A DNA stretch of 64,000 bases, taken from the sequence record OR062945.1; one strand, given 5' to 3'. Position numbers and translations under genes: made by a program. The stretch's first letter is position 1. Each line of letters starts with the position of its first letter. The notes below the pieces were generated by a model that saw only the letters and a list, made by a program, of their open reading frames with translations, was not told the origin of the DNA and did not search any database. The DNA comes from Escherichia phage 308Ecol101PP. Of the stretch, positions 16,549 through 47,596 are shown one piece after another.

Positions 16549-19260
16549 ATGAAAGAATTTTACTTAACGGTTGAACAGATTGGTGATTCAATTTTTGAAC
16601 GTTACATCGATTCTAACGGCCGTGAACGTACTCGTGAAGTAGAATATAAACCATCACTGTTTGCTCATTGTCCAGAAAGTCAGGCTACGAAATATTTCGA
16701 TATCTACGGTAAGCCGTGTACTCGTAAGTTGTTCGCCAATATGCGTGATGCCTCCCAATGGATTAAACGCATGGAAGATATCGGACTTGAAGCACTTGGC
16801 ATGGATGATTTCAAATTGGCGTATTTGTCTGACACTTATAACTATGAAATCAAATACGACCATACAAAAATTCGTGTGGCTAACTTCGACATCGAAGTAA
16901 CATCTCCGGACGGGTTCCCTGAGCCGTCACAAGCAAAACATCCGATTGATGCTATCACTCATTATGACTCAATTGATGACAGGTTTTATGTATTTGACCT
17001 TTTGAATTCTCCATATGGTAATGTAGAAGAATGGTCTATTGAAATCGCTGCTAAGCTTCAAGAACAAGGCGGTGATGAAGTTCCATCTGAAATTATCGAT
17101 AAAATCATTTATATGCCGTTCGATAACGAAAAAGAATTGTTGATGGAATATCTCAACTTCTGGCAACAGAAAACTCCTGTCATTTTGACTGGATGGAACG
17201 TTGAGTCATTTGATATTCCATATGTGTATAACCGAATCAAGAATATTTTTGGCGAATCTACTGCGAAACGTTTATCACCACATCGTAAAACTCGTGTTAA
17301 AGTTATCGAAAACATGTATGGTTCTCGTGAAATCATTACATTGTTCGGTATCTCTGTTCTTGATTACATTGACCTTTACAAAAAATTCTCTTTTACCAAT
17401 CAACCATCATATTCTCTGGATTACATTTCAGAATTTGAATTGAACGTTGGTAAACTGAAATATGACGGCCCTATTTCTAAGCTTCGTGAAAGCAATCACC
17501 AACGATATATTTCTTATAACATTATCGACGTGTATCGTGTATTGCAAATTGATGCTAAACGTCAGTTCATCAACTTGAGTTTGGACATGGGTTATTATGC
17601 TAAGATACAGATTCAATCTGTGTTTAGCCCAATTAAAACATGGGATGCTATTATTTTTAATAGCCTTAAAGAGCAGAACAAGGTGATTCCACAAGGTCGT
17701 TCTCACCCGGTTCAACCTTATCCCGGCGCTTTTGTTAAGGAACCTATTCCAAATCGATACAAATATGTAATGAGTTTCGACCTTACATCTCTGTATCCAA
17801 GTATTATTCGCCAAGTGAATATTAGCCCAGAAACAATAGCAGGAACGTTTAAAGTAGCTCCACTACATGATTATATTAACGCAATCGCTGAACGTCCTTC
17901 TGATGTGTACAGTTGTTCTCCTAACGGCATGATGTATTATAAAGACCGTGACGGTGTTGTTCCAACTGAAATCACTAAAGTCTTTAATCAACGTAAAGAA
18001 CATAAAGGTTACATGCTTGCAGCTCAACGTAATGGCGAAATAATTAAAGAGGCATTGCATAATCCTAATCTTTCTGTTGACGAACCATTAGATGTTGATT
18101 ATCGTTTCGACTTCAGTGATGAGATTAAAGAAAAGATTAAAAAGTTGTCTGCTAAATCTCTTAATGAAATGTTGTTTAGAGCTCAACGTACTGAAGTTGC
18201 AGGTATGACTGCCCAAATTAACCGTAAATTGCTTATCAACTCACTTTATGGTGCACTTGGCAACGTTTGGTTCCGTTATTATGATTTGCGTAATGCTACT
18301 GCAATCACAACATTCGGGCAAATGGCTTTACAGTGGATTGAACGTAAAGTTAATGAATATCTGAATGAAGTTTGTGGCACAGAAGGTGAAGCTTTCGTTC
18401 TTTATGGTGATACAGACTCTATTTACGTATCTGCTGATAAAATTATCGATAAGGTTGGTGAATCTAAATTCCGTGATACCAACCATTGGGTAGACTTCTT
18501 AGATAAGTTTGCACGTGAACGTATGGAACCAGCTATTGATAGAGGTTTCCGTGAAATGTGTGAATACATGAACAATAAACAACACTTAATGTTCATGGAC
18601 CGAGAAGCTATCGCTGGGCCTCCACTCGGTTCTAAAGGTATTGGTGGATTCTGGACTGGTAAGAAACGTTATGCATTAAACGTGTGGGATATGGAAGGAA
18701 CCAGATACGCTGAGCCTAAACTCAAAATCATGGGTCTAGAGACTCAGAAATCTTCGACTCCTAAAGCAGTACAGAAAGCTCTTAAAGAATGTATTCGTCG
18801 TATGCTTCAAGAAGGTGAAGAATCATTACAAGAATATTTTAAAGAGTTTGAAAAAGAATTCCGTCAATTGAATTATATTAGCATCGCGTCGGTATCTTCT
18901 GCGAATAACATTGCTAAATATGATGTAGGTGGATTCCCTGGTCCTAAATGCCCGTTCCATATTCGTGGAATTCTGACGTATAACCGGGCTATCAAAGGTA
19001 ATATCGATGCACCGCAAGTTGTAGAAGGTGAAAAAGTATATGTTCTGCCTTTACGTGAAGGAAACCCATTCGGTGATAAATGTATCGCATGGCCTTCTGG
19101 TACTGAAATCACAGATTTAATTAAAGACGATGTACTTCATTGGATGGACTACACTGTTCTCCTTGAGAAGACATTTATTAAACCACTTGAAGGATTCACA
19201 TCAGCAGCGAAACTCGATTACGAGAAGAAAGCATCTCTGTTCGATATGTTCGATTTTTGA
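16549..19260 (+). CDS. 43: DNA polymerase gp43 (family B, with 3'-5' exonuclease)
   Basis: 903 aa; exonuclease motif FDIEV, polymerase motifs DLTSLYPSI, KLLINSLYG and YGDTDS; N-terminus matches my memory of RB69 gp43. Confidence 0.95.
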   Translation: MKEFYLTVEQIGDSIFERYIDSNGRERTREVEYKPSLFAHCPESQATKYFDIYGKPCTRKLFANMRDASQWIKRMEDIGLEALGMDDFKLAYLSDTYNYEIKYDHTKIRVANFDIEVTSPDGFPEPSQAKHPIDAITHYDSIDDRFYVFDLLNSPYGNVEEWSIEIAAKLQEQGGDEVPSEIIDKIIYMPFDNEKELLMEYLNFWQQKTPVILTGWNVESFDIPYVYNRIKNIFGESTAKRLSPHRKTRVKVIENMYGSREIITLFGISVLDYIDLYKKFSFTNQPSYSLDYISEFELNVGKLKYDGPISKLRESNHQRYISYNIIDVYRVLQIDAKRQFINLSLDMGYYAKIQIQSVFSPIKTWDAIIFNSLKEQNKVIPQGRSHPVQPYPGAFVKEPIPNRYKYVMSFDLTSLYPSIIRQVNISPETIAGTFKVAPLHDYINAIAERPSDVYSCSPNGMMYYKDRDGVVPTEITKVFNQRKEHKGYMLAAQRNGEIIKEALHNPNLSVDEPLDVDYRFDFSDEIKEKIKKLSAKSLNEMLFRAQRTEVAGMTAQINRKLLINSLYGALGNVWFRYYDLRNATAITTFGQMALQWIERKVNEYLNEVCGTEGEAFVLYGDTDSIYVSADKIIDKVGESKFRDTNHWVDFLDKFARERMEPAIDRGFREMCEYMNNKQHLMFMDREAIAGPPLGSKGIGGFWTGKKRYALNVWDMEGTRYAEPKLKIMGLETQKSSTPKAVQKALKECIRRMLQEGEESLQEYFKEFEKEFRQLNYISIASVSSANNIAKYDVGGFPGPKCPFHIRGILTYNRAIKGNIDAPQVVEGEKVYVLPLREGNPFGDKCIAWPSGTEITDLIKDDVLHWMDYTVLLEKTFIKPLEGFTSAAKLDYEKKASLFDMFDF

Positions 19261-19300: not shown

Positions 19301-19936
19301 ATGAAAACTACTCCTATTACTATCGCTATTGACGCAATCATAAAACAAGCTTCTTCTTTGGCCGCTATGGCCAAAGTAATTAGTCAAAACCCTGCTCGTT
19401 ATAATGCTATTCTAGAAACTCTTCGACGCCCAGGACTTAGTAATTATGAAAGCCGAGTAATTATTACAGGTGTTGGTAAGAATGCTAATATTGCAACTAA
19501 AGCTTCTGAGACATTTGCTTCACTTGGTATCCCGAGTATGTACTTGAACACTGGGCATTATTCTCACGGTGATGCAGGATTCATTGCGCCTAATGATGTG
19601 TTGATTCATATTAGTCGTTCTGGTAAAACTGAAGAAATGATAGGCGTGGCTAAGCATCTTAAAATGATTCGTCCGAACGTCAAACAGATTCTGTTGCATT
19701 GTAACCCGGACATTCCACAAGAATACGAAGCTCTTTTTGATTATACGTTCTGTACAGGCATCGCAGTAGAGGTTGATGAGAATTCTCTGGCTCCGACCAT
19801 GTCCACTACATTGTTGTTAGCGCTTATCGATACGTTTGCTATCAACCTTTCGTCTGAACGTGGATTTACCTCTAATGACTTCCTTAAGTTCCACCCTGGT
19901 GGTGCACTAGGTGCCATGTTACGAGGCGAACAATGA
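19301..19936 (+). CDS. SIS-domain sugar-phosphate isomerase (KdsD/GutQ-like or GmhA-like, no CBS domains)
   Basis: 211 aa; SIS-like pattern GVGKNANIA...SRSGKTEE and C-terminal HPGGALG, characteristic of arabinose-5-phosphate isomerase SIS domains. Confidence 0.7.
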   Translation: MKTTPITIAIDAIIKQASSLAAMAKVISQNPARYNAILETLRRPGLSNYESRVIITGVGKNANIATKASETFASLGIPSMYLNTGHYSHGDAGFIAPNDVLIHISRSGKTEEMIGVAKHLKMIRPNVKQILLHCNPDIPQEYEALFDYTFCTGIAVEVDENSLAPTMSTTLLLALIDTFAINLSSERGFTSNDFLKFHPGGALGAMLRGEQ

Positions 19937-20076
19937 AAGCAATAACAATAGGACTTTTACTATTGATGCTTGTCATGACTATCTACTGGAGCTTAACGGC
20001 TCCAGTAATGATTCCGACTCTTATAATCGGATGGATTATGATTGGACTACAAGCAAAGTATGAATGCTTTAACTAG
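19933..20076 (+). CDS. hypothetical small membrane protein (47 aa, not in ORF track)
   Basis: Hand-translated ATG 19933 (ATGA overlap) to TAG 20074-20076; almost entirely hydrophobic. Confidence 0.35.
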   Translation: MKAITIGLLLLMLVMTIYWSLTAPVMIPTLIIGWIMIGLQAKYECFN

Positions 20077-20117
20077 AATAGTGTACAATACTCCTACTTA
20101 CCAATGAGGACCACAAC

Positions 20118-21803
20118 ATGAAAAAAGCTGTTATTCTTGGTGCTGGACTGGCAACTCGTTTGTATCCAATAACGCATCATATTCCTAAGGTGCTTGTTAA
20201 CTATAAACAAGACACTATTCTGAGCAATTTGTATACAATTTATTCTGACCTTGGCGCAGATGAAATTATTGTAGTAGTTCATTCAAAATTTGCTGAAACT
20301 GTTCGAGCTTATTGTGAGCAAGAAGGGTTCAATGTGACTATTCGTACAGTTGATGAAGCGTATGGTTCTGCTTATGCTCTTGCTAAATTGCACAAAGATT
20401 TAGACGGCCATAATGTAATTGTTAACTGGTGTGATATTATTCCTGATTTTGGTTCGTGGTCTTGGAATGTTAACGCAATCTATGTTAAGGGTGACGAATG
20501 TCGATATAATTTCGACGGTGAAAATATCACTAATGTAGGTTCAACAGGTGGTAATGTTGTAGGAATTTATCAGTTCAAAGACTGGGAATTCTATATGGGT
20601 TCTACTGATGAGGAAATTCATGAATACTGCAAAGGACGTGATTTCGTAGAATTCCTTTACGGCAGCGCATTCAATAAATCAGAGCTTATGAATCTAATTG
20701 ATTTAGGTGATATGCCTAAACTTGAAAAAGCTCATGAAGTTCGTGAACTTAATCGTAGTTTTAATGCAGTTGAAATTGGTGAAGAAACTGTAACTAAATT
20801 CGCATTAACCGAACAGGGCCGAGCTCTTCAGAAAGATGAGATTTCATGGTATCTTAAAGTGAAATCAGATTCAGTTCCTCAGTTAGTTTCTGTTAATGAA
20901 AATAACTTTGAAATGGAACGCATTAAAGGTAAGCCGGCATTTGAATATATTAAATCCAAATCAAGTCTTGCTCGTCCACAAATTGTTGATGCAATTTTAG
21001 ATGCACTGAAATTCAGCACAGACACTTATTTTGTAAGTCCTGAAACTGTTCGTCGTGATTTCACTAAAGAATTCTATACTAAAGTTATTGATCGTTGTGA
21101 AAGTATTCAACCATTGATTGATTCATTTGGTAAAATCACACATGTGAACTACACTAAGATTGGGCGTCTGAAGCCAATGTTGAAACAAGCTTTAGAACAC
21201 CTTATTCGTTATCATAACCGTTCTCAGGGACAGTACTCTGTTATTCATGGTGACCCGAACTTCAGTAATACTATGATTACTGATAATGGTGAAGTCAAGT
21301 TTATCGACCCTCGTGGATATTTTGGTGAAACCAAGATTTATGGGCCAAAATTGTATGATGAAGCTAAAGTGCTTTACGCTGTTTCAGGTTATGATGAATT
21401 CAACGCTAATCCGACTTGGGGACAGTTTACTATTGATGAAACAACTTGTAATGTGACTATTAACATCAATCCGTTAGTTTACAAATATGGAAAGATGAGT
21501 TCGTTTAACGAGTATCATCATTTGGCAGTGGCAATTATCTGGATTGCATTAGGTGGTTATTTCAAGAATAATCCACTTAAAGCGGTAGCCGCATATTATA
21601 AAGGTATGGAACTTCTGACTAAGCAATTACGTAATATGGGCCGTGTACTTCAGGACGGCACTATTAGTTATGATGTAGCAGAACCTGTAACGGCTACTCT
21701 GATTACAAAAAATCCTGGTAAATGGGTACTAACTGATAAAGAAACTGGTGTTTCTTATCGTCCAATCGGTGGCGATATCACTCATCAATGGGAACGAATC
21801 TAA
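20118..21803 (+). CDS. bifunctional sugar-1-phosphate nucleotidyltransferase / kinase-fold protein
   Basis: N-terminus ILGAGLATRLYPIT resembles the G-x-G-T-R motif of sugar nucleotidyltransferases; C-terminal HGDPNFSNTMI...KFIDPRG resembles the catalytic loop of APH/choline-kinase-fold kinases. Confidence 0.7.
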   Translation: MKKAVILGAGLATRLYPITHHIPKVLVNYKQDTILSNLYTIYSDLGADEIIVVVHSKFAETVRAYCEQEGFNVTIRTVDEAYGSAYALAKLHKDLDGHNVIVNWCDIIPDFGSWSWNVNAIYVKGDECRYNFDGENITNVGSTGGNVVGIYQFKDWEFYMGSTDEEIHEYCKGRDFVEFLYGSAFNKSELMNLIDLGDMPKLEKAHEVRELNRSFNAVEIGEETVTKFALTEQGRALQKDEISWYLKVKSDSVPQLVSVNENNFEMERIKGKPAFEYIKSKSSLARPQIVDAILDALKFSTDTYFVSPETVRRDFTKEFYTKVIDRCESIQPLIDSFGKITHVNYTKIGRLKPMLKQALEHLIRYHNRSQGQYSVIHGDPNFSNTMITDNGEVKFIDPRGYFGETKIYGPKLYDEAKVLYAVSGYDEFNANPTWGQFTIDETTCNVTININPLVYKYGKMSSFNEYHHLAVAIIWIALGGYFKNNPLKAVAAYYKGMELLTKQLRNMGRVLQDGTISYDVAEPVTATLITKNPGKWVLTDKETGVSYRPIGGDITHQWERI

Positions 21804-22189
21804 TGCACCGTGTAAAAAACATGCTTAATCTTTGTTTTGATGTCGATGATTGTATAACAGAGTGGAATAACAATCGTGATTACGTGAACTTCAAACCAGA
21901 CGTCGAAATGGTGTCTGCCATTAATGCCCTGTATGATGCAGGGCATACCATAACGCTTTACACTGCTCGCGGTATGAAGTCAGTAGGTCCTGGTCGTATA
22001 GCAATTGACATTCTCCCAAGTCTGATTCAGAACTTGGCAAACATTGGATTGAAGTACCATAATTTGCTAACACATAAACCAGTATATGATTGGATTATCG
22101 ACGACAAAGCTATGCGTCCTGACGAATTCAAAGCTCTTATGAATAAAGGCGAATTCGAAACATTTAAATCATATAAACCGAATCTATAA
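21803..22189 (+). CDS. HAD-superfamily phosphatase
   Basis: 128 aa with HAD motif I (FDVDDCIT); TAATG overlap with upstream gene; track start 21788. Confidence 0.6.
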   Translation: MHRVKNMLNLCFDVDDCITEWNNNRDYVNFKPDVEMVSAINALYDAGHTITLYTARGMKSVGPGRIAIDILPSLIQNLANIGLKYHNLLTHKPVYDWIIDDKAMRPDEFKALMNKGEFETFKSYKPNL

Positions 22190-22235
22190 TAATTTAAGTA
22201 AGACCTGCAAAAACCATCGCATCAATTAACGTGGG

Positions 22236-23411
22236 ATGCAAAAAAAAAAAATGAATACTTTTAAAATCGGAACGAATTTTGATTTAGCTCTTCTTGATAA
22301 AATCGTAGAGCTCAATAAAACTTATCCTAATAGCTTGATAAACGAAGTATACGGCTCTACAAGAGAAATGGCTTTTGTAGCAGCCAGACCTGATTTTAGG
22401 CTTCCTGACGTTGACAAAAAGATGTTAGAAGATTACGTTAAACGTTGTAACGAATTAGGTATTTGCTTTAACTATACACTCAACACGATAAATCCTGGTT
22501 CAAAAAGAGAACTAGTTGAGTGGAAGAAGAAAGCTATTCAGGATTATGTTCAGTATCTTTGGTCAATAGGCGTATGGCGTATTACTATCGCTAACCCTGT
22601 TGTTATGGAAATTGTTCGTGAAGTCAATAAAGACATTGAGATTGAAGTTTCAACAATTCTACATGTCGATGCTGTAACTCAAATCAAATACTTGCATGAC
22701 CAATATAATATCAAAAAGGTCTGCTGTGGAATTCATAAGAACCGTTCAGTTTCTTTCCTGAAACGTGCAGCAGAGTTTTGTAATAAGAACAATATAATAT
22801 TTGAAGTTCTTGTAAATGAGTTCTGTTCTAATGCTGGTAAAGGGTACACAACACATTGTAGCTATCGTGACTCTTGCTATATTTTCCATAGCACCGATGT
22901 TACAGTAGATGATGCCAAATCCTTAAATGGATATCCAATGCAACACTGTATTAAAGCTCGTGATACAGATCCATTTAACTGGTTGAGAACTCGTTTTGTT
23001 CGTCCTCAAGATTTGAAACTTTATAATGATATTGGTATCACTCAATTTAAAGTTTCAGGACGTACAGGTAGCACCGACTACATTTTAAAAGTTCTTGAAG
23101 CTTACGCTTCTGAAAAGTTTGAAGGTAATTTGTTGGAATTGTGGAAGCCTTTAGAGACCATTTTCACTCTTGAAAATGAGACTGAGTTTTCACATACGGT
23201 AAATATTGAAACCTCTTTGTTAGACGGCTTTTTAGAAAAAAGGTGGTTCAAACATCCAGATTTCGATTGTGCTAATGAAATCTGCGGGACGACGTGTACA
23301 TATTGTGAAAGATATTATAAACGTCAGTTATCTAAAAATGGGTTATCAGAAAACTCTATATCTATTATTGATATAACTAACTCTGATGACGCTTTGAGGT
23401 ACCCAGAATGA
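22236..23411 (+). CDS. hypothetical Cys-rich protein (start at ATG 22236 or 22251)
   Basis: 391 aa with many Cys (CCGIH, EFCSNAG, HCSYRDSC, CANEICGTTCTYCE); an A12 tract lies between the two candidate ATGs. Confidence 0.5.
   Translation: MQKKKMNTFKIGTNFDLALLDKIVELNKTYPNSLINEVYGSTREMAFVAARPDFRLPDVDKKMLEDYVKRCNELGICFNYTLNTINPGSKRELVEWKKKAIQDYVQYLWSIGVWRITIANPVVMEIVREVNKDIEIEVSTILHVDAVTQIKYLHDQYNIKKVCCGIHKNRSVSFLKRAAEFCNKNNIIFEVLVNEFCSNAGKGYTTHCSYRDSCYIFHSTDVTVDDAKSLNGYPMQHCIKARDTDPFNWLRTRFVRPQDLKLYNDIGITQFKVSGRTGSTDYILKVLEAYASEKFEGNLLELWKPLETIFTLENETEFSHTVNIETSLLDGFLEKRWFKHPDFDCANEICGTTCTYCERYYKRQLSKNGLSENSISIIDITNSDDALRYPE
22240..22251 (+). repeat. homopolymeric A12 tract at the 5' end of the Cys-rich gene
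   Basis: ATGCAAAAAAAAAAAATG read directly from the sequence. Confidence 0.8.
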
Positions 23412-23493
23412 TTTCTAGAAAAACTTTTAACCACCAACTTAACGAAGAGATTTTGACTATTAAAATTAACAGCAACGAACAAATTCTTAAAAA

Positions 23494-23513
23494 GGCCCTT
23501 ATGGGCCTGTTTG
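23494..23513 (+). terminator. candidate weak terminator hairpin
   Basis: GGCCC-TTAT-GGGCC followed by TGTTTG. Confidence 0.3.
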
Positions 23514-23645
23514 AAACTAAAGCGGCTAAAGTGATTAAAGAAACCTGTTCAACTAGAATACTACGCTGATGCATTTCTTCATAGTGTTCTTGGAAATATC
23601 GATGCTGAAGCTTTACGTTATATCAACATCGCTAAGAAATTCAAA

Positions 23646-23671
23646 TAAGCTTTATGAATTGAGTATATAAT
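23646..23671 (+). promoter_or_regulatory. candidate MotA-dependent middle promoter upstream of gene 42
   Basis: AAGCTTTA box, then 11 nt, then TATAAT (23666-23671). Confidence 0.4.
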
Positions 23672-23689
23672 AACTGTATTGAGGTAAAC

Positions 23690-24406
23690 ATGGGAAAACA
23701 TAACACAATGAAATATATTAAAGCCGCAGATTTTCAATCCGCATTTAAAGCTGTCAATCGTGAAATTTTAGAAAATCCACAGTTCGTTACTGATTCTCGT
23801 ATTGGACGTTGTAATGAAATTGGGTCTATGACAGTAGTTGTTGATACCCCTTCATCATTCAAAATGACCGACCCACGTATTAATCGCATCTCTTATGAAT
23901 ATGCTGAAGATTTCTGGAAATTTATGATTTCTGGTGGTACTGATGCAAAAGAAGCATTTAAGGCATATCCTAACGTTGCTAAATTTATTTCTAAACCTAA
24001 ATCAGACGCTTTGCCTGCAAACTTCAACACTTTCTATGGTCCACGAATTGCGGCCCAGTTACCAGCTCTTCTCAAAGAACTTAAAGAGAAACCTAATTCA
24101 CGAAGAGTTGTGTTTCAAATTCTTGAAAGTTCAGATCAGGCTTTGCTTGATTCGGATGAAACGCTTGAATATCCATGTACTGACTCAGTGACTTATTATA
24201 TTCGTGATGGTAAGCTTTATACCCACTGTCATATGCGTTCTCAGAACTGTGCTGTTGTTATGCAGTTGGATTTTTATCTCCAAGGAAAATTACTTCATTA
24301 TATCGCTAACGAATGTGGTGTAGAAGTTGGTGATTATACTCATACCATGGTAAGTGCCCATGTGTTTGAACGTGATTTTGATTATGTTAAAGGATTCCTT
24401 GACTAA
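23690..24406 (+). CDS. 42: dCMP hydroxymethylase (thymidylate-synthase fold)
   Basis: 238 aa; TS-family pattern SRRVVFQIL ... YPCTDS (catalytic Cys) ... QLDFY (Asp 31 residues after the Cys, as in cytosine-specific members). Confidence 0.7.
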   Translation: MGKHNTMKYIKAADFQSAFKAVNREILENPQFVTDSRIGRCNEIGSMTVVVDTPSSFKMTDPRINRISYEYAEDFWKFMISGGTDAKEAFKAYPNVAKFISKPKSDALPANFNTFYGPRIAAQLPALLKELKEKPNSRRVVFQILESSDQALLDSDETLEYPCTDSVTYYIRDGKLYTHCHMRSQNCAVVMQLDFYLQGKLLHYIANECGVEVGDYTHTMVSAHVFERDFDYVKGFLD

Positions 24407-25305
24407 TGGCTATTTTCCGCGTACCTATCTTGAGTATGCGGTCTTATGAAACTGGACAGTATGCTATCCTTAAGGATGGCAACTTCCAACTTCATTTGCA
24501 CCGTGCTAATCCGGGTGATGTGATTACATATCCACGTAATGCATCTGATATTAAAGAATGCGAACGTCTTTTTCCAGAATTTAAGTTTGTTCCATTATGG
24601 TATAAAGATAACGCGTATAACACTCGTAAATATTTCTGGTCTGAAAATGAATTTGTGGTTGATTCATTAATTGCTTATTATGATTGTGATTTTCTAATCA
24701 CAGATATCACTGGATATGACGGCGCTTTTGATGTGGAATTCAATTTCAATATCACTGCAGACCCTAATAAACCACGTTTTTATATTGACGAATTCTTAAA
24801 AACCGACATGTTGTCGGTTAATCGTTCACTTCAAACTACTGTGTTGAATGAACGTCAAAAAGAAGTGCTGGTTAACGCAGGTGCAGATGGTAATAAGATT
24901 ATCGTAACCCAGAAAGTTATACGTCCTTCCATCATGCAGCGTCTTGTAGGTGATTTGGCTCCTATTCATCTAGATGGTATTTTTCATCCATTTCGAATTA
25001 GTGACCCGTGCTATCGTTTTGAACAAGTGGTTGAATGTGCAATTCAATTAGGTCAACCGCTTTATATAACTGATCCAAATAATAGTTTCGACAGAAATAA
25101 GTATCCTGAAGAAGCGCTGATTCGAATTTTTAATCCAACTAAAACTGAGTACTATCAAATTCTTAAAGGACGTCCGAAGATTCAATATTTCGAAAATCCT
25201 GAAGAAGTATTCCATCCAGGTCTTGGTGAGTTCATCTACTTTAATGCTTTAATTTCTTCGCCGTATAATATACCTAAATACGAAGATGTCGTAATCGAGG
25301 AATAA
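24406..25305 (+). CDS. hypothetical protein at the locus where T4 encodes beta-glucosyltransferase
   Basis: 299 aa, TAATG overlap with gene 42; no resemblance to T4 beta-GT that I can see. Confidence 0.5.
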   Translation: MAIFRVPILSMRSYETGQYAILKDGNFQLHLHRANPGDVITYPRNASDIKECERLFPEFKFVPLWYKDNAYNTRKYFWSENEFVVDSLIAYYDCDFLITDITGYDGAFDVEFNFNITADPNKPRFYIDEFLKTDMLSVNRSLQTTVLNERQKEVLVNAGADGNKIIVTQKVIRPSIMQRLVGDLAPIHLDGIFHPFRISDPCYRFEQVVECAIQLGQPLYITDPNNSFDRNKYPEEALIRIFNPTKTEYYQILKGRPKIQYFENPEEVFHPGLGEFIYFNALISSPYNIPKYEDVVIEE

Positions 25306-25306
25306 A

Positions 25307-25855
25307 ATGGTTAAAATTATTTTAGTAGATGGCCCGGATAATGCCGGTAAAACAACTTTCATTAATGACATAATGGAAATTAGTGAAAGATATGTAAAGA
25401 TTGATTTCCCTAAACGAACAGTTGATGGACGTTTCGATGTTAAGTCTCGAAATGAAGTTGGCTGTTTCGAAACGATGTTGAATTATTTAGACCCTACTAA
25501 GATTTATCTGTTAGACCGTGGATATATTAGTAACTGGGTTTATGGACGTATTCGACAAGATGCGGACTCGGTTCTTGACGTTTATGAACAGGATTATGTT
25601 CGTCTTTGCCAAAACCATGATGTGTTCACAATTATTTTAACACGTAACGAAATGACTGAAAGTTTTGAAGACGACCTTATTACTTTGTCTTCATTCGGTT
25701 TTAATACAGTCATTTCATATTTTGAAGAGTTTGCAATTCATAACAAAATCCAAACGTATCAATTACTTAATCATGACGGTGCTAACAAAGTTATAGGATT
25801 TAATGCAAGCGAACGTAATTATTTGATTACAGAAATTATCAAATGGGCTCGTTAA
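25307..25855 (+). CDS. P-loop nucleotide kinase, thymidylate-kinase-like
   Basis: 182 aa; Walker A VDGPDNAGKTT and DRGY motif as in the Tmk family. Confidence 0.55.
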   Translation: MVKIILVDGPDNAGKTTFINDIMEISERYVKIDFPKRTVDGRFDVKSRNEVGCFETMLNYLDPTKIYLLDRGYISNWVYGRIRQDADSVLDVYEQDYVRLCQNHDVFTIILTRNEMTESFEDDLITLSSFGFNTVISYFEEFAIHNKIQTYQLLNHDGANKVIGFNASERNYLITEIIKWAR

Positions 25856-30211: not shown

Positions 30212-30580
30212 ATGAAAAAATTAATCGCTTTAGCAATGGTATTTGGATTAACCGGATGTGGTGCCCATGGCTTTATCCCTAATAACGTTGGCCAATTGAT
30301 TTACAATCCGAATGTTAAACAATATGAACAACCTAAAGTTGAAGTGGAAGACCCGGTTACTGTAGGTAATCGAATGATTCAAGCTGATGCCCATGCTCAA
30401 CGTTATCGTGACTCTGATACTGTAGCTGTGTCAAAGGAACAGCGCGTTAAAGAACATTGCTTACAGGCTACTGAAATCGCATTCATTCGCTATGTTGAAA
30501 CAACCGGTAAAGAGCCTACCCAGAAACAAATCGCGAATAACTACGTCCAGTGTATTGAACGTTTAAACAAATTTAATTAA
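30212..30580 (+). CDS. putative lipoprotein
   Basis: Signal peptide with lipobox LTGC (MKKLIALAMVFGLTGC). Confidence 0.55.
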   Translation: MKKLIALAMVFGLTGCGAHGFIPNNVGQLIYNPNVKQYEQPKVEVEDPVTVGNRMIQADAHAQRYRDSDTVAVSKEQRVKEHCLQATEIAFIRYVETTGKEPTQKQIANNYVQCIERLNKFN

Positions 30581-30641
30581 TTGGTTTACGCCAAAGTTAA
30601 AACAAGATGCTATAAACATAACAAATCAAGAGGAAATTAAC

Positions 30642-30890
30642 ATGGAATTATTCGTGGCTAGTTCAGTAGCAGTTTTAATCGCAGGTATTGGTTCAATCAT
30701 CATTTACATGTTGCCTTGGGTAATCGCACTTATTCGTGGCACAAAAAGCACAACAGCAATCTTCTTTGTATCTTTACTCTTTAACTGGACGATGATTGGT
30801 TGGATTGGAACTTTAATTTGGTCTATTGTTGCCGAAAAGAAATCTGCTCAGCAGCCTCAACAAGTAATTATTATTCGCGAAAAAGAATAA
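30642..30890 (+). CDS. hypothetical inner-membrane protein
   Basis: 82 aa with two hydrophobic helices. Confidence 0.5.
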   Translation: MELFVASSVAVLIAGIGSIIIYMLPWVIALIRGTKSTTAIFFVSLLFNWTMIGWIGTLIWSIVAEKKSAQQPQQVIIIREKE

Positions 30891-46495: not shown

Positions 46496-47596
46496 ATGAA
46501 AGTTATGTTTATCCCATCTCGCGCAGTCCCATTTAATCCTGACCGTGTACAAGGTGGTCTTGAAGCAGTACATTTAAATGTGTTGAAATATCTTGTGTCC
46601 ATCGGTGCTGATATTGATTATATCGGCTTTGATAATGACACGTTTGGTGACTGGAAAGTTACACACCATCCTGTTGGTCATCTGACTAAATTTAGTCTAG
46701 GTATGAGTTATACTATGGCTCGTAAGATTGTTGAACTAGCCGGCATCCATGAATACGATTTTGTTGTTACTATGGAACCGACTAAACTAACCGTTCAGGC
46801 AATTAAAGACGCAGGTCTCTCTAAAGTTCATAAGAATTTTATGGCAACACCATTTGAACCGGTATCTCGTGGCATTGTTCAAATTTGGGACCAGACTATT
46901 CAAATTCATAAGAATGGTGGTAAGAGTTATGCTCCTACTAAAGCCTTCCGTGAATTTGAACGCAAATATTGTTATATGACTTCAGGTCTGACTGACAAAA
47001 TTGATTATGATTATTGGCGAGCAAATCCGTTGTTTGAAGCCGAAGATTATCCGGTTATTTGTTTGAATGAGAAACCTGAAGTTCTTCCGGCGACTGATCT
47101 GATTATTAGTGCACAACGTTATGACACTAAAATGCGTCGTACTGATGTTGCTCTTGAAGCGATTAAAGCACTAGGCGAAAATGGTGTAGGATACTGTCCA
47201 AGCAAATGGGCACCACCAGCTAAATATCCTGTTATTATTGATGCTCCACACAGTGAAATCATGGAACGTCTTAAAACAGCTAAAGCGCTTATTAATACGT
47301 GTCCTGACACAGGTACGGTAGAGAATAGTTCTATTGAAGCCATCTCTAAAGGTGTCCCTGTAATCCAGTTAGTTTTTAAGGATTATCCTCATGCGACATT
47401 CGAATACGACCCAGATACTGTGCGTGTAGAAATTGATTCCTCTACTCCTAAGAAAGAAGTAGTTGCGCTTTACACAAAAGCTGTATTAGAATTCACTGAC
47501 ACATACGAAGCTCGAGTTAAACGTGCTGAAGCAGTATGGAAGAAGTATAACCGAGATGCAGTTGTTGCGATGTGGGATAAAATCTTCACAGCGTAA
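46496..47596 (+). CDS. GT-B fold glycosyltransferase (GT4-like), candidate DNA glycosyltransferase
   Basis: 366 aa; C-terminal E-x7-E-type motif VENSSIEAISKGVPVIQ typical of GT4 retaining glycosyltransferases; N-terminus MKVMFIPSRAVPFNPDRVQGG. Confidence 0.6.
   Translation: MKVMFIPSRAVPFNPDRVQGGLEAVHLNVLKYLVSIGADIDYIGFDNDTFGDWKVTHHPVGHLTKFSLGMSYTMARKIVELAGIHEYDFVVTMEPTKLTVQAIKDAGLSKVHKNFMATPFEPVSRGIVQIWDQTIQIHKNGGKSYAPTKAFREFERKYCYMTSGLTDKIDYDYWRANPLFEAEDYPVICLNEKPEVLPATDLIISAQRYDTKMRRTDVALEAIKALGENGVGYCPSKWAPPAKYPVIIDAPHSEIMERLKTAKALINTCPDTGTVENSSIEAISKGVPVIQLVFKDYPHATFEYDPDTVRVEIDSSTPKKEVVALYTKAVLEFTDTYEARVKRAEAVWKKYNRDAVVAMWDKIFTA

Follow-up and report, generated by a model that had tools for sequence, protein, structure and literature searches.

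The segment from 19301 to 25855 of the window (the whole 64,000-nucleotide stretch of Escherichia phage 308Ecol101PP analysed here, record OR062945.1) is very probably a gene cluster for arabinosyl-5-hydroxycytosine DNA, in which a UDP-D-arabinofuranose pathway of the RB69 type would supply the sugar. We hold this explanation with considerable confidence on the strength of the 97-100% identity of the window's proteins to characterised proteins of phages HY126 and RB69, and the phage itself is an RB69-type Mosigvirus. Two neighbouring proteins of the module match solved structures at 99-100% identity. As the initial annotation had described, four co-oriented open reading frames (a SIS isomerase, a 561-aa fusion, a HAD phosphatase and a 391-aa Cys-rich protein) lie on the plus strand, between an RB69-type DNA polymerase gene (16549-19260) and a thymidylate-synthase (TS) homolog (23690-24406), and all the motifs quoted for them are present in the translations. 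The accompanying remark that T4 carries only imm between genes 43 and 42 needs a small amendment, since imm.1 and imm, and nothing else, are found there. The functional cluster extends past the four genes, as far as 25855. The module recurs in about 150 phage records at 95-99% nucleotide identity, HY126 and Bas46 among them, and is therefore not a chance pattern of open reading frames; the Bas46 record annotates it as 'UDP-arabinose biosynthesis'.

Three of the four genes are those of the published UDP-D-arabinofuranose pathway, namely the SIS isomerase, AfhE and AfhF (Thomas 2018, PMC6024577; He 2026, cited in Lee 2026, PMC13326640, on the biochemistry of the HY126 enzymes AfhE and AfhF), so that the gene-by-gene assignment, first put forward for this DNA as an inference, is not new. 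Its isomerase, kinase/nucleotidyltransferase and phosphatase assignments agree with the Pfam and NCBIfam matches, with the identity to HY126 and with published work, and the idea of an NDP-pentose donor for cytosine glycosylation, made from ribulose-5-P via arabinose-5-P, accords with PMC6024577 and with what PMC13326640 says of the pathway. Profile searches returned the expected SIS, nucleotidyltransferase and HAD families, but the fourth protein proved to be a Peptidase_U32 member.

The SIS-domain D-arabinose-5-phosphate isomerase (19301..19936, plus strand, 211 aa, equivalent to RB69 gp55), assigned from family matches, consists of a SIS domain alone, without CBS domains, contains the HPGGALG motif and is 100% identical to its HY126 counterpart. 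It matches Pfam SIS (1.7e-10), NCBIfam KpsF/GutQ (2.2e-32) and KdsD (1.2e-30), and the structures 3etn (5.5e-25), 5uqi and 2xhz; the NCBIfam profile search gave no match to GmhA. The AfhE-type bifunctional kinase/nucleotidyltransferase (20118..21803, plus strand, 561 aa) is 96.8% identical to the HY126 protein, with 13 clustered substitutions and one indel in the inter-domain region (aa 228-266), and its translation holds the GAGLATRL and HGDPNFSN...IDPRG motifs. Its N-terminus matches NTP_transferase (Pfam, 8.5e-10, residues 3-99) and NCBIfam sugar-1-P nucleotidyltransferase families, while kinase-family matches in the C-terminus (308-409) are weak and below threshold (Pfam, E 0.002-0.009). 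HY126 AfhE phosphorylates Araf5P to Araf-1,5-P2 (He 2026, as cited in PMC13326640), and we predict, as confidently as for the pathway as a whole, that the C-terminal kinase-fold domain catalyses this step and that the N-terminal sugar-1-P nucleotidyltransferase converts Araf1P and UTP to UDP-Araf. The AfhF-type HAD phosphatase (21803..22189, plus strand), with the predicted reaction Araf-1,5-P2 to Araf1P, belongs to a reading frame of 133 aa that is open from 21788; the gene most likely starts at 21803, its ATG overlapping the stop codon of AfhE in the sequence TAATG, because both the HY126 annotation and the PDB 9iqw construct begin there. From residue M6 the protein is 99% identical to 9iqw; it matches TIGR01689 (capsule biosynthesis phosphatase, 4.2e-13), carries the FDVDDCIT motif and is 99.2% identical to the HY126 protein, which takes a phosphate off the AfhE product Araf-1,5-P2 (He 2026, via PMC13326640). 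Many GenBank records name the HAD gene 'phosphoheptose isomerase'.

Two further small open reading frames lie within the four-gene span. One (19933..20076, plus strand) encodes a hydrophobic product of 47 aa, its ATG overlaps the stop codon of the SIS gene (ATGA), and it is a hypothetical CDS in Bas46 and HY126, 100% identical in the latter; a Pfam search with it gave no match. The other (23408..23647, plus strand) encodes 79 aa in relatives, and alignment with Bas46 and L008 shows it to be broken here by a +1 A insertion, the first frame stopping at 23569. Two plus-strand motifs read from the sequence, TGCTTTA with a 12-nt spacer and TACAAT 5' of AfhE (20065..20089) and AGCTTTA with an 11-nt spacer and TATAAT 5' of the TS homolog (23648..23671), are putative T4 middle-promoter motifs, similar to the MotA-box consensus.

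In the pathway that we propose, the SIS protein would convert host ribulose-5-P to D-arabinofuranose-5-P, the C-terminal kinase domain of AfhE would phosphorylate C1 to give arabinofuranose-1,5-bisphosphate, the HAD phosphatase would take off the 5-phosphate, and the N-terminal domain of AfhE would join Araf-1-P with UTP to form UDP-D-arabinofuranose. The TS homolog would make 5-hydroxy-dCMP with flavin and O2 and a dedicated kinase would take this product on towards the triphosphate. Once the DNA is replicated, the transferase encoded at 24406-25305 would attach arabinose to the 5-OH, and that at 46496-47596 would then extend the arabinose on DNA.

The order of steps preferred by the initial annotation was another one, in which the HAD protein first dephosphorylates arabinose-5-P to free arabinose, the kinase then phosphorylates C1 and NDP-arabinose follows. 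That order is improbable even if, on paper, it is compatible with the same enzyme set and Table 1 of PMC13326640 still gives its step labels to RB69 gp51 and gp52:53: the text of PMC13326640, where it deals with HY126, has AfhE acting on Araf5P to give the 1,5-bisphosphate and AfhF acting afterwards, and the window's counterparts of these two enzymes share 96.8% and 99.2% identity with them. Moreover, if D-arabinose were set free, equilibration would bring it into the pyranose form, at the cost of the furanose configuration found in DNA. A heptose route modelled on GmhA/HldE/GmhB, leading from sedoheptulose-7-P to NDP-heptose and also raised initially, can be set aside with near certainty, for although its step order (isomerase, C1-kinase, distal phosphatase, nucleotidyltransferase) carries over to arabinose and the HAD gene bears the phosphoheptose label, the profile matches of the SIS protein are to KpsF/GutQ/KdsD arabinose-5-P isomerases (2e-32) and not to GmhA, the kinase domain has no match to the PfkB family of HldE, and the sugar chemically identified in DNA of RB69, NP and related phages is arabinose, not heptose (PMC6024577, PMC13326640, PMC13390438).

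The acceptor base differs from the hydroxymethylcytosine that was first assumed. The TS homolog (23690..24406, plus strand) is 100% identical to the HY126 protein and to PDB 9iqc, 9ir2 and 9iqu, and in ThyA numbering it carries the changes D169N, N177D and W80A, whereas T4 gp42, about 25% identical to it, keeps W80 and D169. In the literature D169N marks the flavin/O2-dependent 5hodCMP synthase (PMC13326640), and the protein is predicted to be such a 5-hydroxy-dCMP synthase and not a dCMP hydroxymethylase. Because this supposed hydroxymethylase is 9iqc at 100% and bears the D169N signature, the predicted acceptor is 5-hydroxycytosine. The lack of agt and bgt, remarked on earlier, stands but gives an incomplete picture, as the window encodes two candidate glycosyltransferases. 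The candidate first arabinosyltransferase (24406..25305, plus strand), assigned from Table 1 of PMC13326640 as the equivalent of RB69 gp46:47, is 99% identical to its HY126 counterpart, had no match in a Pfam search and is proposed to put arabinose onto 5hoC in DNA. The second candidate (46496..47596, plus strand) lies between the topoisomerase gene and rIIA, in the position of RB69 ORF003c, of which it is, by synteny only, the putative equivalent; the gene was seen solely in Mosigvirus records and is labelled 'DNA alpha-glucosyltransferase' in HX01. A thymidylate-kinase-like nucleotide kinase (25307..25855, plus strand), equivalent to RB69 gp45 according to the same Table 1, had no Pfam match at E<=0.01, and its Bas46 counterpart is annotated as a putative thymidylate kinase.

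The 391-aa Cys-rich protein had been counted among the sugar-activation enzymes. It is a U32-family TIM-barrel protein (22236..23411, plus strand, 13 Cys, equivalent to RB69 gp50; relatives annotate the start at M6, 22251) that is not a sugar-activation enzyme and has no part in donor synthesis, being unneeded for the isomerase/kinase/phosphatase/nucleotidyltransferase set. It matches Peptidase_U32 above the Pfam gathering score (6.6e-11), and its AF2 model (pLDDT 90.5) has 5d88 as best PDB match; profile-profile comparison with single E. coli U32 sequences gave weak matches. Ten Cys are invariant in the subfamily, and C208 and C214 align with Fe-S cysteines of UbiU/UbiV/TrhP/RlhA. The canonical Cx6Cx15Cx3C is not retained, the spacing being C197-x10-C208-x5-C214-x3-H218; the conserved Cys motifs suggest putative Fe-S binding. 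A literature search found no published function for the phage U32 protein. In E. coli, RlhA (ho5C), TrhP (ho5U) and UbiU/V are required for O2-independent, prephenate-dependent hydroxylations, and direct hydroxylase activity in vitro has not been shown for these proteins (PMC5727448, PMC10990095, PMC11574389).

On grounds of comparative genomics only, we tentatively propose that the U32 protein may be a prephenate-dependent, O2-independent pyrimidine C5-hydroxylase, a leading possibility that falls a little short of probable. It would form the same 5-hydroxypyrimidine without O2, backing up the O2-dependent synthase. A locus scan for which the first-transferase family was the sole seed gave 41 informative loci, all of which hold a TS-family gene, a U32 protein or both (neither in 0): a TS-type hydroxylase together with U32 in 15, the hydroxylase only in 19, U32 only in 6, and U32 with canonical ThyA in 1; loci span +/-6-10 kb only, and U32-only genomes could hold a TS-type hydroxylase elsewhere. 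The U32 gene accompanies transferase, SIS, AfhE-like, HAD, MazG or kinase genes in about 30 non-T4-like phage loci, none of which has a TS-type hydroxylase within +/-10 kb of it. In 6 diverged viral loci the gene next to U32 encodes a DAHP synthase-chorismate mutase fusion, which in 9 others lies near CmoA. Prephenate is the product of this fusion, and CmoA is the one other enzyme known to use it; in principle, the role of the DAHP synthase could instead be to provide a deoxy-heptulosonate sugar. None of the U32 hits comes from phages of Acinetobacter, a strict aerobe, and AfhE is present in 57 Acinetobacter phage records; this absence could reflect phage lineage, not host physiology. E. coli Dhakaviruses manage without the U32 gene, and the hosts of distant U32 phages are probably Bacteroidota, the putative hosts including aerobes.

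Distinctly less likely is a non-hydroxylating role, either as a sugar or heterocycle enzyme (a reductase, or one tailoring donor or base) or as an accessory or maturation factor. Table 1 of PMC13326640 does label RB69 gp50 'sugar or heterocycle reductase', but in the passages describing AfhE and AfhF these two are reported to make UDP-arabinose from Araf5P, with U32 unmentioned. The gene directly adjoins SIS, AfhE-like and HAD genes in many distant loci; it also occurs beside purely nucleotide-metabolism neighbours, without sugar genes, and Acinetobacter phages and Dhakaviruses have complete ara-5hoC clusters that lack it. The generic TIM barrel is common to many sugar enzymes, yet the either/or pattern involves the TS-type hydroxylase and no sugar gene. 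That the protein is a true collagenase-like peptidase unrelated to DNA modification, as the 'peptidase' or 'collagenase-like PrtC protease' label of most database records implies, is highly improbable, since characterised E. coli family members act in hydroxylation pathways and not in proteolysis, very different phages carry the gene inside their DNA-modification clusters, and ten invariant cysteines suggest metal clusters, not a protease active site.

The closest known system is the HY126 Afh/RB69 gp45-gp55 cluster, whose genes between DNA polymerase and uvsX are the same, in the same order, and encode proteins 97-100% identical to those found here (He et al. 2026, Nat Chem Biol; Lee et al. 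2026, NAR, PMC13326640; Thomas et al. 2018, PMC6024577); the window differs almost nowhere, save for the AfhE patch at aa 228-266 and the +1 frameshift in the 23408-23647 frame. The GmhA/HldE/GmhB ADP-heptose pathway follows the same logic of isomerase, bifunctional C1-kinase/nucleotidyltransferase and HAD phosphatase acting on a bisphosphate. In the window, however, the sugar would be a pentose, the SIS protein is KpsF/KdsD-like and not GmhA-like, the kinase has a fold of the aminoglycoside/choline-kinase type in place of the PfkB type of HldE, and the nucleotidyltransferase is GlmU/RmlA/MurU-like. T4 gene 42 and the alpha/beta-glucosyltransferases occupy the same genomic slot (43, a 42-like gene, transferase, uvsX), and the T4 strategy of having a TS homolog make a modified dCMP ahead of post-replicative glycosylation would be that of this phage too. 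The window's enzyme, set apart from gp42 by D169N, W80A and an identity of only about 25%, would hydroxylate with flavin and O2, whereas gp42 transfers a folate one-carbon unit; and because E. coli has no UDP-arabinose, the phage must make its own donor. With RlhA, TrhP and UbiU/UbiV, the phage U32 protein shares the Peptidase_U32 domain, the TIM barrel (5d88) and two aligned Fe-S cysteines; its relatives associate with a chorismate-mutase gene, and RlhA/TrhP are required for pyrimidine C5-OH chemistry. It differs from them in its low identity (about 18-20%), its variant Cys/His motif, an extra C-terminal Cx4Cx3Cx2C motif, the lack of RNA-binding extensions and a putative substrate that would be a deoxynucleotide or DNA. 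The proposed pairing of U32 with the TS homolog would parallel those of UbiU/V with UbiI/H/F and of TrhP with TrhO.

Four open reading frames, all on the plus strand, occupy the coordinates proposed in the initial annotation and contain every motif that it quoted: the arabinose-5-P isomerase, a SIS-domain protein (19301-19936, 211 aa), the nucleotidyltransferase/kinase AfhE (20118-21803, 561 aa), the HAD phosphatase AfhF (21788-22189, 133 aa) and a fourth protein of 391 aa with 13 cysteines (22236-23411). Clamp-loader genes, regA and an RB69-type DNA polymerase (16549-19260) lie on the 5' side, and a TS homolog (23690-24406), a 299-aa protein (24406-25305), a 182-aa kinase (25307-25855) and uvsX follow on the 3' side. 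By megablast, the 4.1-kb stretch recurs in about 150 phage genomes at 95-99% identity, nearly all of them Escherichia or Shigella Mosigvirus, and the Bas46 annotation of these genes reads 'UDP-arabinose biosynthesis'.

Profile searches bear out the isomerase, nucleotidyltransferase and phosphatase families initially assigned to the module, with weak matches for the kinase. The SIS protein carries a SIS domain (1.7e-10), is matched by TIGR00393 KpsF/GutQ (2.2e-32) and KdsD (1.2e-30), and resembles PDB entries 3etn, 5uqi and 2xhz. AfhE has an N-terminal NTP_transferase domain (residues 3-99, 8.5e-10), gives weak matches in its C-terminal half (residues 308-409) to fructosamine, ecdysteroid and RIO-type kinase models, and carries the HGDPNFSN and IDPRG motifs. 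The gene directly 3' of it encodes a capsule-type phosphatase (TIGR01689, 4.2e-13), which is 99% identical to PDB 9iqw starting at the sixth residue; this match and the HY126 annotation point to 21803, where TAATG overlaps the AfhE stop, as the likely start.

A strongly hydrophobic 47-aa ORF (19933-20076), for which no family match was found, overlaps the SIS stop through ATGA and is 100% conserved in phage HY126. Between the fourth gene and the TS homolog, another small ORF (23408-23647) encodes 79 aa in Bas46 and in one metagenomic relative; in the window it contains one extra A (AAAGAAACC vs AAAG-AACC), which may reflect either a genuine frameshift or an error in sequencing, and its first frame stops at 23569. 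Upstream of AfhE (20065-20089), TGCTTTA is followed after 12 nt by TACAAT, and upstream of the TS homolog (23648-23671), AGCTTTA is followed after 11 nt by TATAAT. We take both to be MotA-box-like and to resemble T4 middle promoters, which would fit early or middle expression. A promoter and terminator scan gave no signal beyond shuffle expectation.

The claim that the module leads from a pentose phosphate to an NDP-arabinose donor for glycosylation of cytosine in DNA is correct. The module is thus confirmed, and its novelty is low because the pathway has already been published (PMC6024577, PMC13326640). Arabinose was found in RB69 DNA by Thomas et al. (2018, PMC6024577), who named ORF055c, the SIS gene, and the fused ORF53_52c as possible genes of UDP-arabinose synthesis. 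According to He et al. (2026), as cited in PMC13326640, AfhE of HY126 converts Araf5P to Araf-1,5-P2 and also has UDP-arabinose pyrophosphorylase activity, while AfhF is a Mg-dependent phosphatase giving Araf1P. The order preferred in the initial annotation, with dephosphorylation ahead of the kinase step, is at odds with this route as it is reported through Araf-1,5-P2 (PMC13326640). The same arabinosyl-5-hydroxycytosine (ara-5hoC) modification has been reported for Mosigvirus NP (Durham collection paper, PMC13390438). Protein identity to HY126 reaches 100% for the SIS protein and the TS homolog, 99.5% for the fourth protein, 99.2% for AfhF, 99.0% for the 299-aa protein, 98.4% for the kinase and 96.8% for AfhE. 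From this 97-100% identity we infer that the phage would follow the route Ru5P to Ara5P to Ara-1,5-P2 to Ara1P to UDP-Araf and would carry ara-5hoC in its virion DNA. Such a module lets the phage make a sugar nucleotide that is absent from the host, and arabinose on every cytosine blocks restriction and CRISPR cleavage, a benefit already published and biochemically supported.

In AfhE, 14 of the 18 differences from HY126 (13 substitutions and a one-residue indel) fall within 39 residues between the nucleotidyltransferase and kinase domains (residues 228-266, window 20799-20915), which may mark either a patch acquired by recombination or a linker that evolves fast.

A heptose route analogous to GmhA/HldE/GmhB had been offered as an alternative. 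Its logic of a bisphosphate step holds, with arabinose as the sugar; heptose itself is rejected, as the GmhA family is absent from the NCBIfam matches of the SIS protein at E<=0.01 (the best being KpsF/KdsD/GutQ), the profile search of AfhE gave neither the PfkB nor the CTP_transf_like match of an HldE architecture, and arabinose was identified chemically.

The acceptor was mistaken for hydroxymethylcytosine. In RB69-type phages the modified base is arabinosylated 5-hydroxycytosine, and the 'gene 42' homolog is a flavin-binding 5-hydroxy-dCMP synthase with O2 as its oxygen source (Lee et al. 2026, PMC13326640). In an alignment with E. coli ThyA, the window's TS homolog shows D169->N, N177->D, W80->A and H147->T; T4 gp42, to which it is only about 25% identical, keeps W80 and D169 where the phage protein has A80 and N169, and D177 is present in both. 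The D169N/W80A signature, the 100% identity to PDB 9iqc (also to 9ir2 and 9iqu) and the low identity to gp42 assign the flanking gene to the published hydroxylase type, and its reading as a dCMP hydroxymethylase is rejected.

In T4 the gene order is 43, imm.1, imm, 42, beta-gt, segA, uvsX, whereas in the window the homologs of imm.1 (33% identity, DUF5481) and imm (65%, Imm_superinfect) are found at 30218-30887, about 11 kb 3' of the polymerase, meaning that the modification cluster has taken their place between genes 43 and 42. The supposed absence of T4-type glucosyltransferases stands for beta-gt, which has no homolog in the window, but two transferase candidates are present. The family of the 299-aa protein (24406-25305) has been assigned as the first arabinosyltransferase (PMC13326640). 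A 366-aa ORF at 46496-47596, between a topoisomerase subunit and rIIA, occupies the position of RB69 ORF003c and is by this position a candidate second arabinosyltransferase; it is seen only in Mosigvirus records, is labelled 'DNA alpha-glucosyltransferase' in HX01 and has no Pfam match.

The residual interest of the module lies in its fourth gene (22236-23411), which had wrongly been counted in the sugar-activation set and which encodes a U32-family protein (Peptidase_U32 PF01136, 6.6e-11, 42.4 bits against a cutoff of 22.4). Its RB69 equivalent, gp50, appears in PMC13326640 solely under the table label 'sugar or heterocycle reductase', the gene is not discussed in the Thanatos paper, and searching the literature for a connection between U32 or RlhA and the modification of phage DNA brought up nothing relevant. 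The subfamily is tightly conserved, with 268 homologs, and members from uncultured sources are 46-58% identical. A sequence search of the PDB gave no match; the AF2 model (pLDDT 90.5) has a TIM-barrel fold, and its top PDB match is the U32 protein 5d88 (1.3e-7), followed by generic TIM barrels. Comparison of the subfamily by hhalign with single E. coli UbiU and TrhP sequences gave low probabilities, each being a single-sequence comparison.

The characterised E. coli U32 proteins are all required for O2-independent, prephenate-dependent hydroxylations: RlhA for 5-hydroxycytidine in 23S rRNA, TrhP for 5-hydroxyuridine in tRNA, and UbiU/UbiV, whose oxygen donor is prephenate, for the ubiquinone ring; the activity of no U32 member has yet been reconstituted in vitro (PMC5727448, PMC10990095, PMC11574389). 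Since the sole known hydroxylase of the phage needs O2, yet E. coli phages replicate in the anoxic gut, we tentatively propose, at somewhat less than an even chance, that the U32 protein may be an O2-independent pyrimidine C5-hydroxylase.

The distribution of the gene bears on this proposal. Scanning IMG/VR with the U32 subfamily profile gave 47 loci, of which 16 are T4-like and contain the full cluster, TS-type hydroxylase included. About 30 loci that are not T4-like have no TS-type hydroxylase within +/-10 kb, and one has a canonical ThyA; in some of these the gene stands beside homologs of the first transferase, SIS, AfhE-like and KdsC-like HAD genes, in others beside MazG/dUTPase-like, thymidylate-kinase-like, dCMP-deaminase and Pol III genes. 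An ORF of the first-transferase family occurs within 4 kb of the U32 gene in 21/38 loci, often abutting it. A scan independent of U32, seeded with the first-transferase family alone, yielded 41 informative loci: 15 contain both the TS-type hydroxylase and U32, 19 the hydroxylase without U32, 6 U32 without the hydroxylase, one U32 with a canonical-type ThyA (W80, D169, N177), and none lacks both. Such a distribution is what one would expect if either protein can supply the acceptor of the transferase, in scans that covered +/-6-10 kb per gene with short peptide patterns and drew on non-independent phage lineages.

Among cultured phages, 221 records contain the U32 gene, in every case at >=80% identity, and the hosts are Enterobacterales and Shewanella. 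AfhE is present in 368 records, 57 of them Acinetobacter phages; the listed U32 matches include no Acinetobacter phage. The Apostate cluster comprises SIS, AfhE, HAD, TS, transferase and kinase genes without U32, and the gene is accessory, as E. coli Dhakaviruses do not have it. The invariant core of the ara-5hoC clusters consists of TS-type hydroxylase, transferase, AfhE, HAD and kinase. The SIS gene is missing from several otherwise complete clusters of Dhakavirus and Marfa-like phages (loci L055 in VR5, L106/L107 in Marfa-like phages, and L110-L115), where host KdsD/GutQ presumably supplies arabinose-5-P.

Another association is that with a DAHP synthase-chorismate mutase fusion (DAHP_synth_1 down to 2e-32, CM_2 down to 5e-20), which is adjacent to, or one gene from, the U32 gene in six diverged viral loci, which show two distinct arrangements. 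Starting from the fusion, a reverse scan found 20 full-length phage copies: six next to the U32 gene, one sharing a 191-kb contig with a U32 locus, and nine about 6 kb or less from a CmoA homolog (1.2e-52), none of these nine near a U32 gene. CmoA is the other enzyme known to use prephenate for nucleic-acid modification, and the phage chorismate mutase thus tends to stand beside one or the other prephenate user. The nearest cellular homologs are from Bacteroidota of mixed lifestyle. What the DAHP synthase provides might be a sugar acid rather than prephenate. The proximity of SIS and KdsC-like genes prompted us to consider a KDO8P synthase instead; this reading is disfavoured by the chorismate-mutase domain and by NCBIfam scores of up to 237 bits for DAHPS vs 63 bits for KDO8P synthase in a related stand-alone homolog. 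Readings of the U32 protein itself as a peptidase or a sugar-tailoring enzyme are hard to square with the TS/U32 distribution in the 41 loci and with the link to the fusion, both of which they explain poorly.

Other neighbourhoods deserve mention in their own right. Nine loci of uncultured phages (L064, L069-L072, L075, L076, L090 and L094) pair the fusion with one or two CmoA homologs, beside genes that appear by eye to be ParB-like, acyl-carrier-like and ThiF-like, and a radical-SAM gene matched in NCBIfam; this group may represent an undescribed carboxy-SAM-dependent nucleic-acid modification system. On a 114-kb viral contig (L080, 3704-8699), a radical SAM-like protein, two 290-aa paralogs, one weakly matching the U32 subfamily profile (2.8e-6), and a stand-alone DAHP synthase without chorismate mutase lie in a row. 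A cellular-looking metagenomic contig (L003/L004, about 10001-17400 of L003) carries two U32-family genes in a nucleoside-centred cluster with radical SAM-SPASM, deoxynucleoside kinase, 5'-nucleotidase, PnuC-type transporter, AlaX-like domain and nucleoside deoxyribosyltransferase genes.

Returning to the proposed hydroxylase, its fuller form, for which we see a little less support than for an even wager, is that these proteins may constitute a new subfamily of U32 Fe-S 'oxidases' that C5-hydroxylate a pyrimidine deoxynucleotide or DNA without O2, with prephenate as donor. In RB69-type phages the enzyme would serve as an anaerobic back-up for the adjacent O2- and flavin-dependent 5hodCMP synthase, allowing a gut phage to continue producing ara-5hoC DNA when O2 is absent; many uncultured phages would have it as their sole hydroxylase, and some of these would bring their own DAHP synthase-chorismate mutase as a prephenate source. 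The substrate may be dCMP, dUMP or DNA; in some loci the dCMP deaminase neighbours would fit dUMP. The proposal is not found in the searchable literature. If true, this would be the first viral U32 hydroxylase and the first in DNA modification, would explain replication in anoxic hosts by gut phages whose sole known hydroxylase needs O2, and would take the poorly understood chemistry of U32 hydroxylation beyond RNA and quinones to DNA precursors. It would also provide a second sequence marker, beside the D169N TS signature, with which to predict from metagenomes DNA modifications based on 5-hydroxypyrimidines; with its small size, solubility, high conservation and simple nucleotide substrate, the phage enzyme might lend itself to working out the U32 chemistry.

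The canonical U32 motif is Cx6Cx15Cx3C, whose four cysteines bind a 4Fe-4S cluster (PMC11574389). Ten cysteines are invariant in the subfamily alignment (C163, C182, C197, C208, C214, C238, C345, C350, C354 and C357), and G201, C208 and C214 are also invariant relative to UbiU, UbiV, TrhP and RlhA, C208 and C214 being the second and third canonical Fe-S cysteines; C238 falls near the position of UbiU C232. The phage protein has in common with RlhA, TrhP, UbiU and UbiV the Peptidase_U32 domain and the TIM-barrel fold; of the canonical cysteines only C208 and C214 align, within a non-canonical variant of the Fe-S motif, C197-x10-C208-x5-C214-x3-H218, in which C197 and H218 replace the first and fourth canonical positions.
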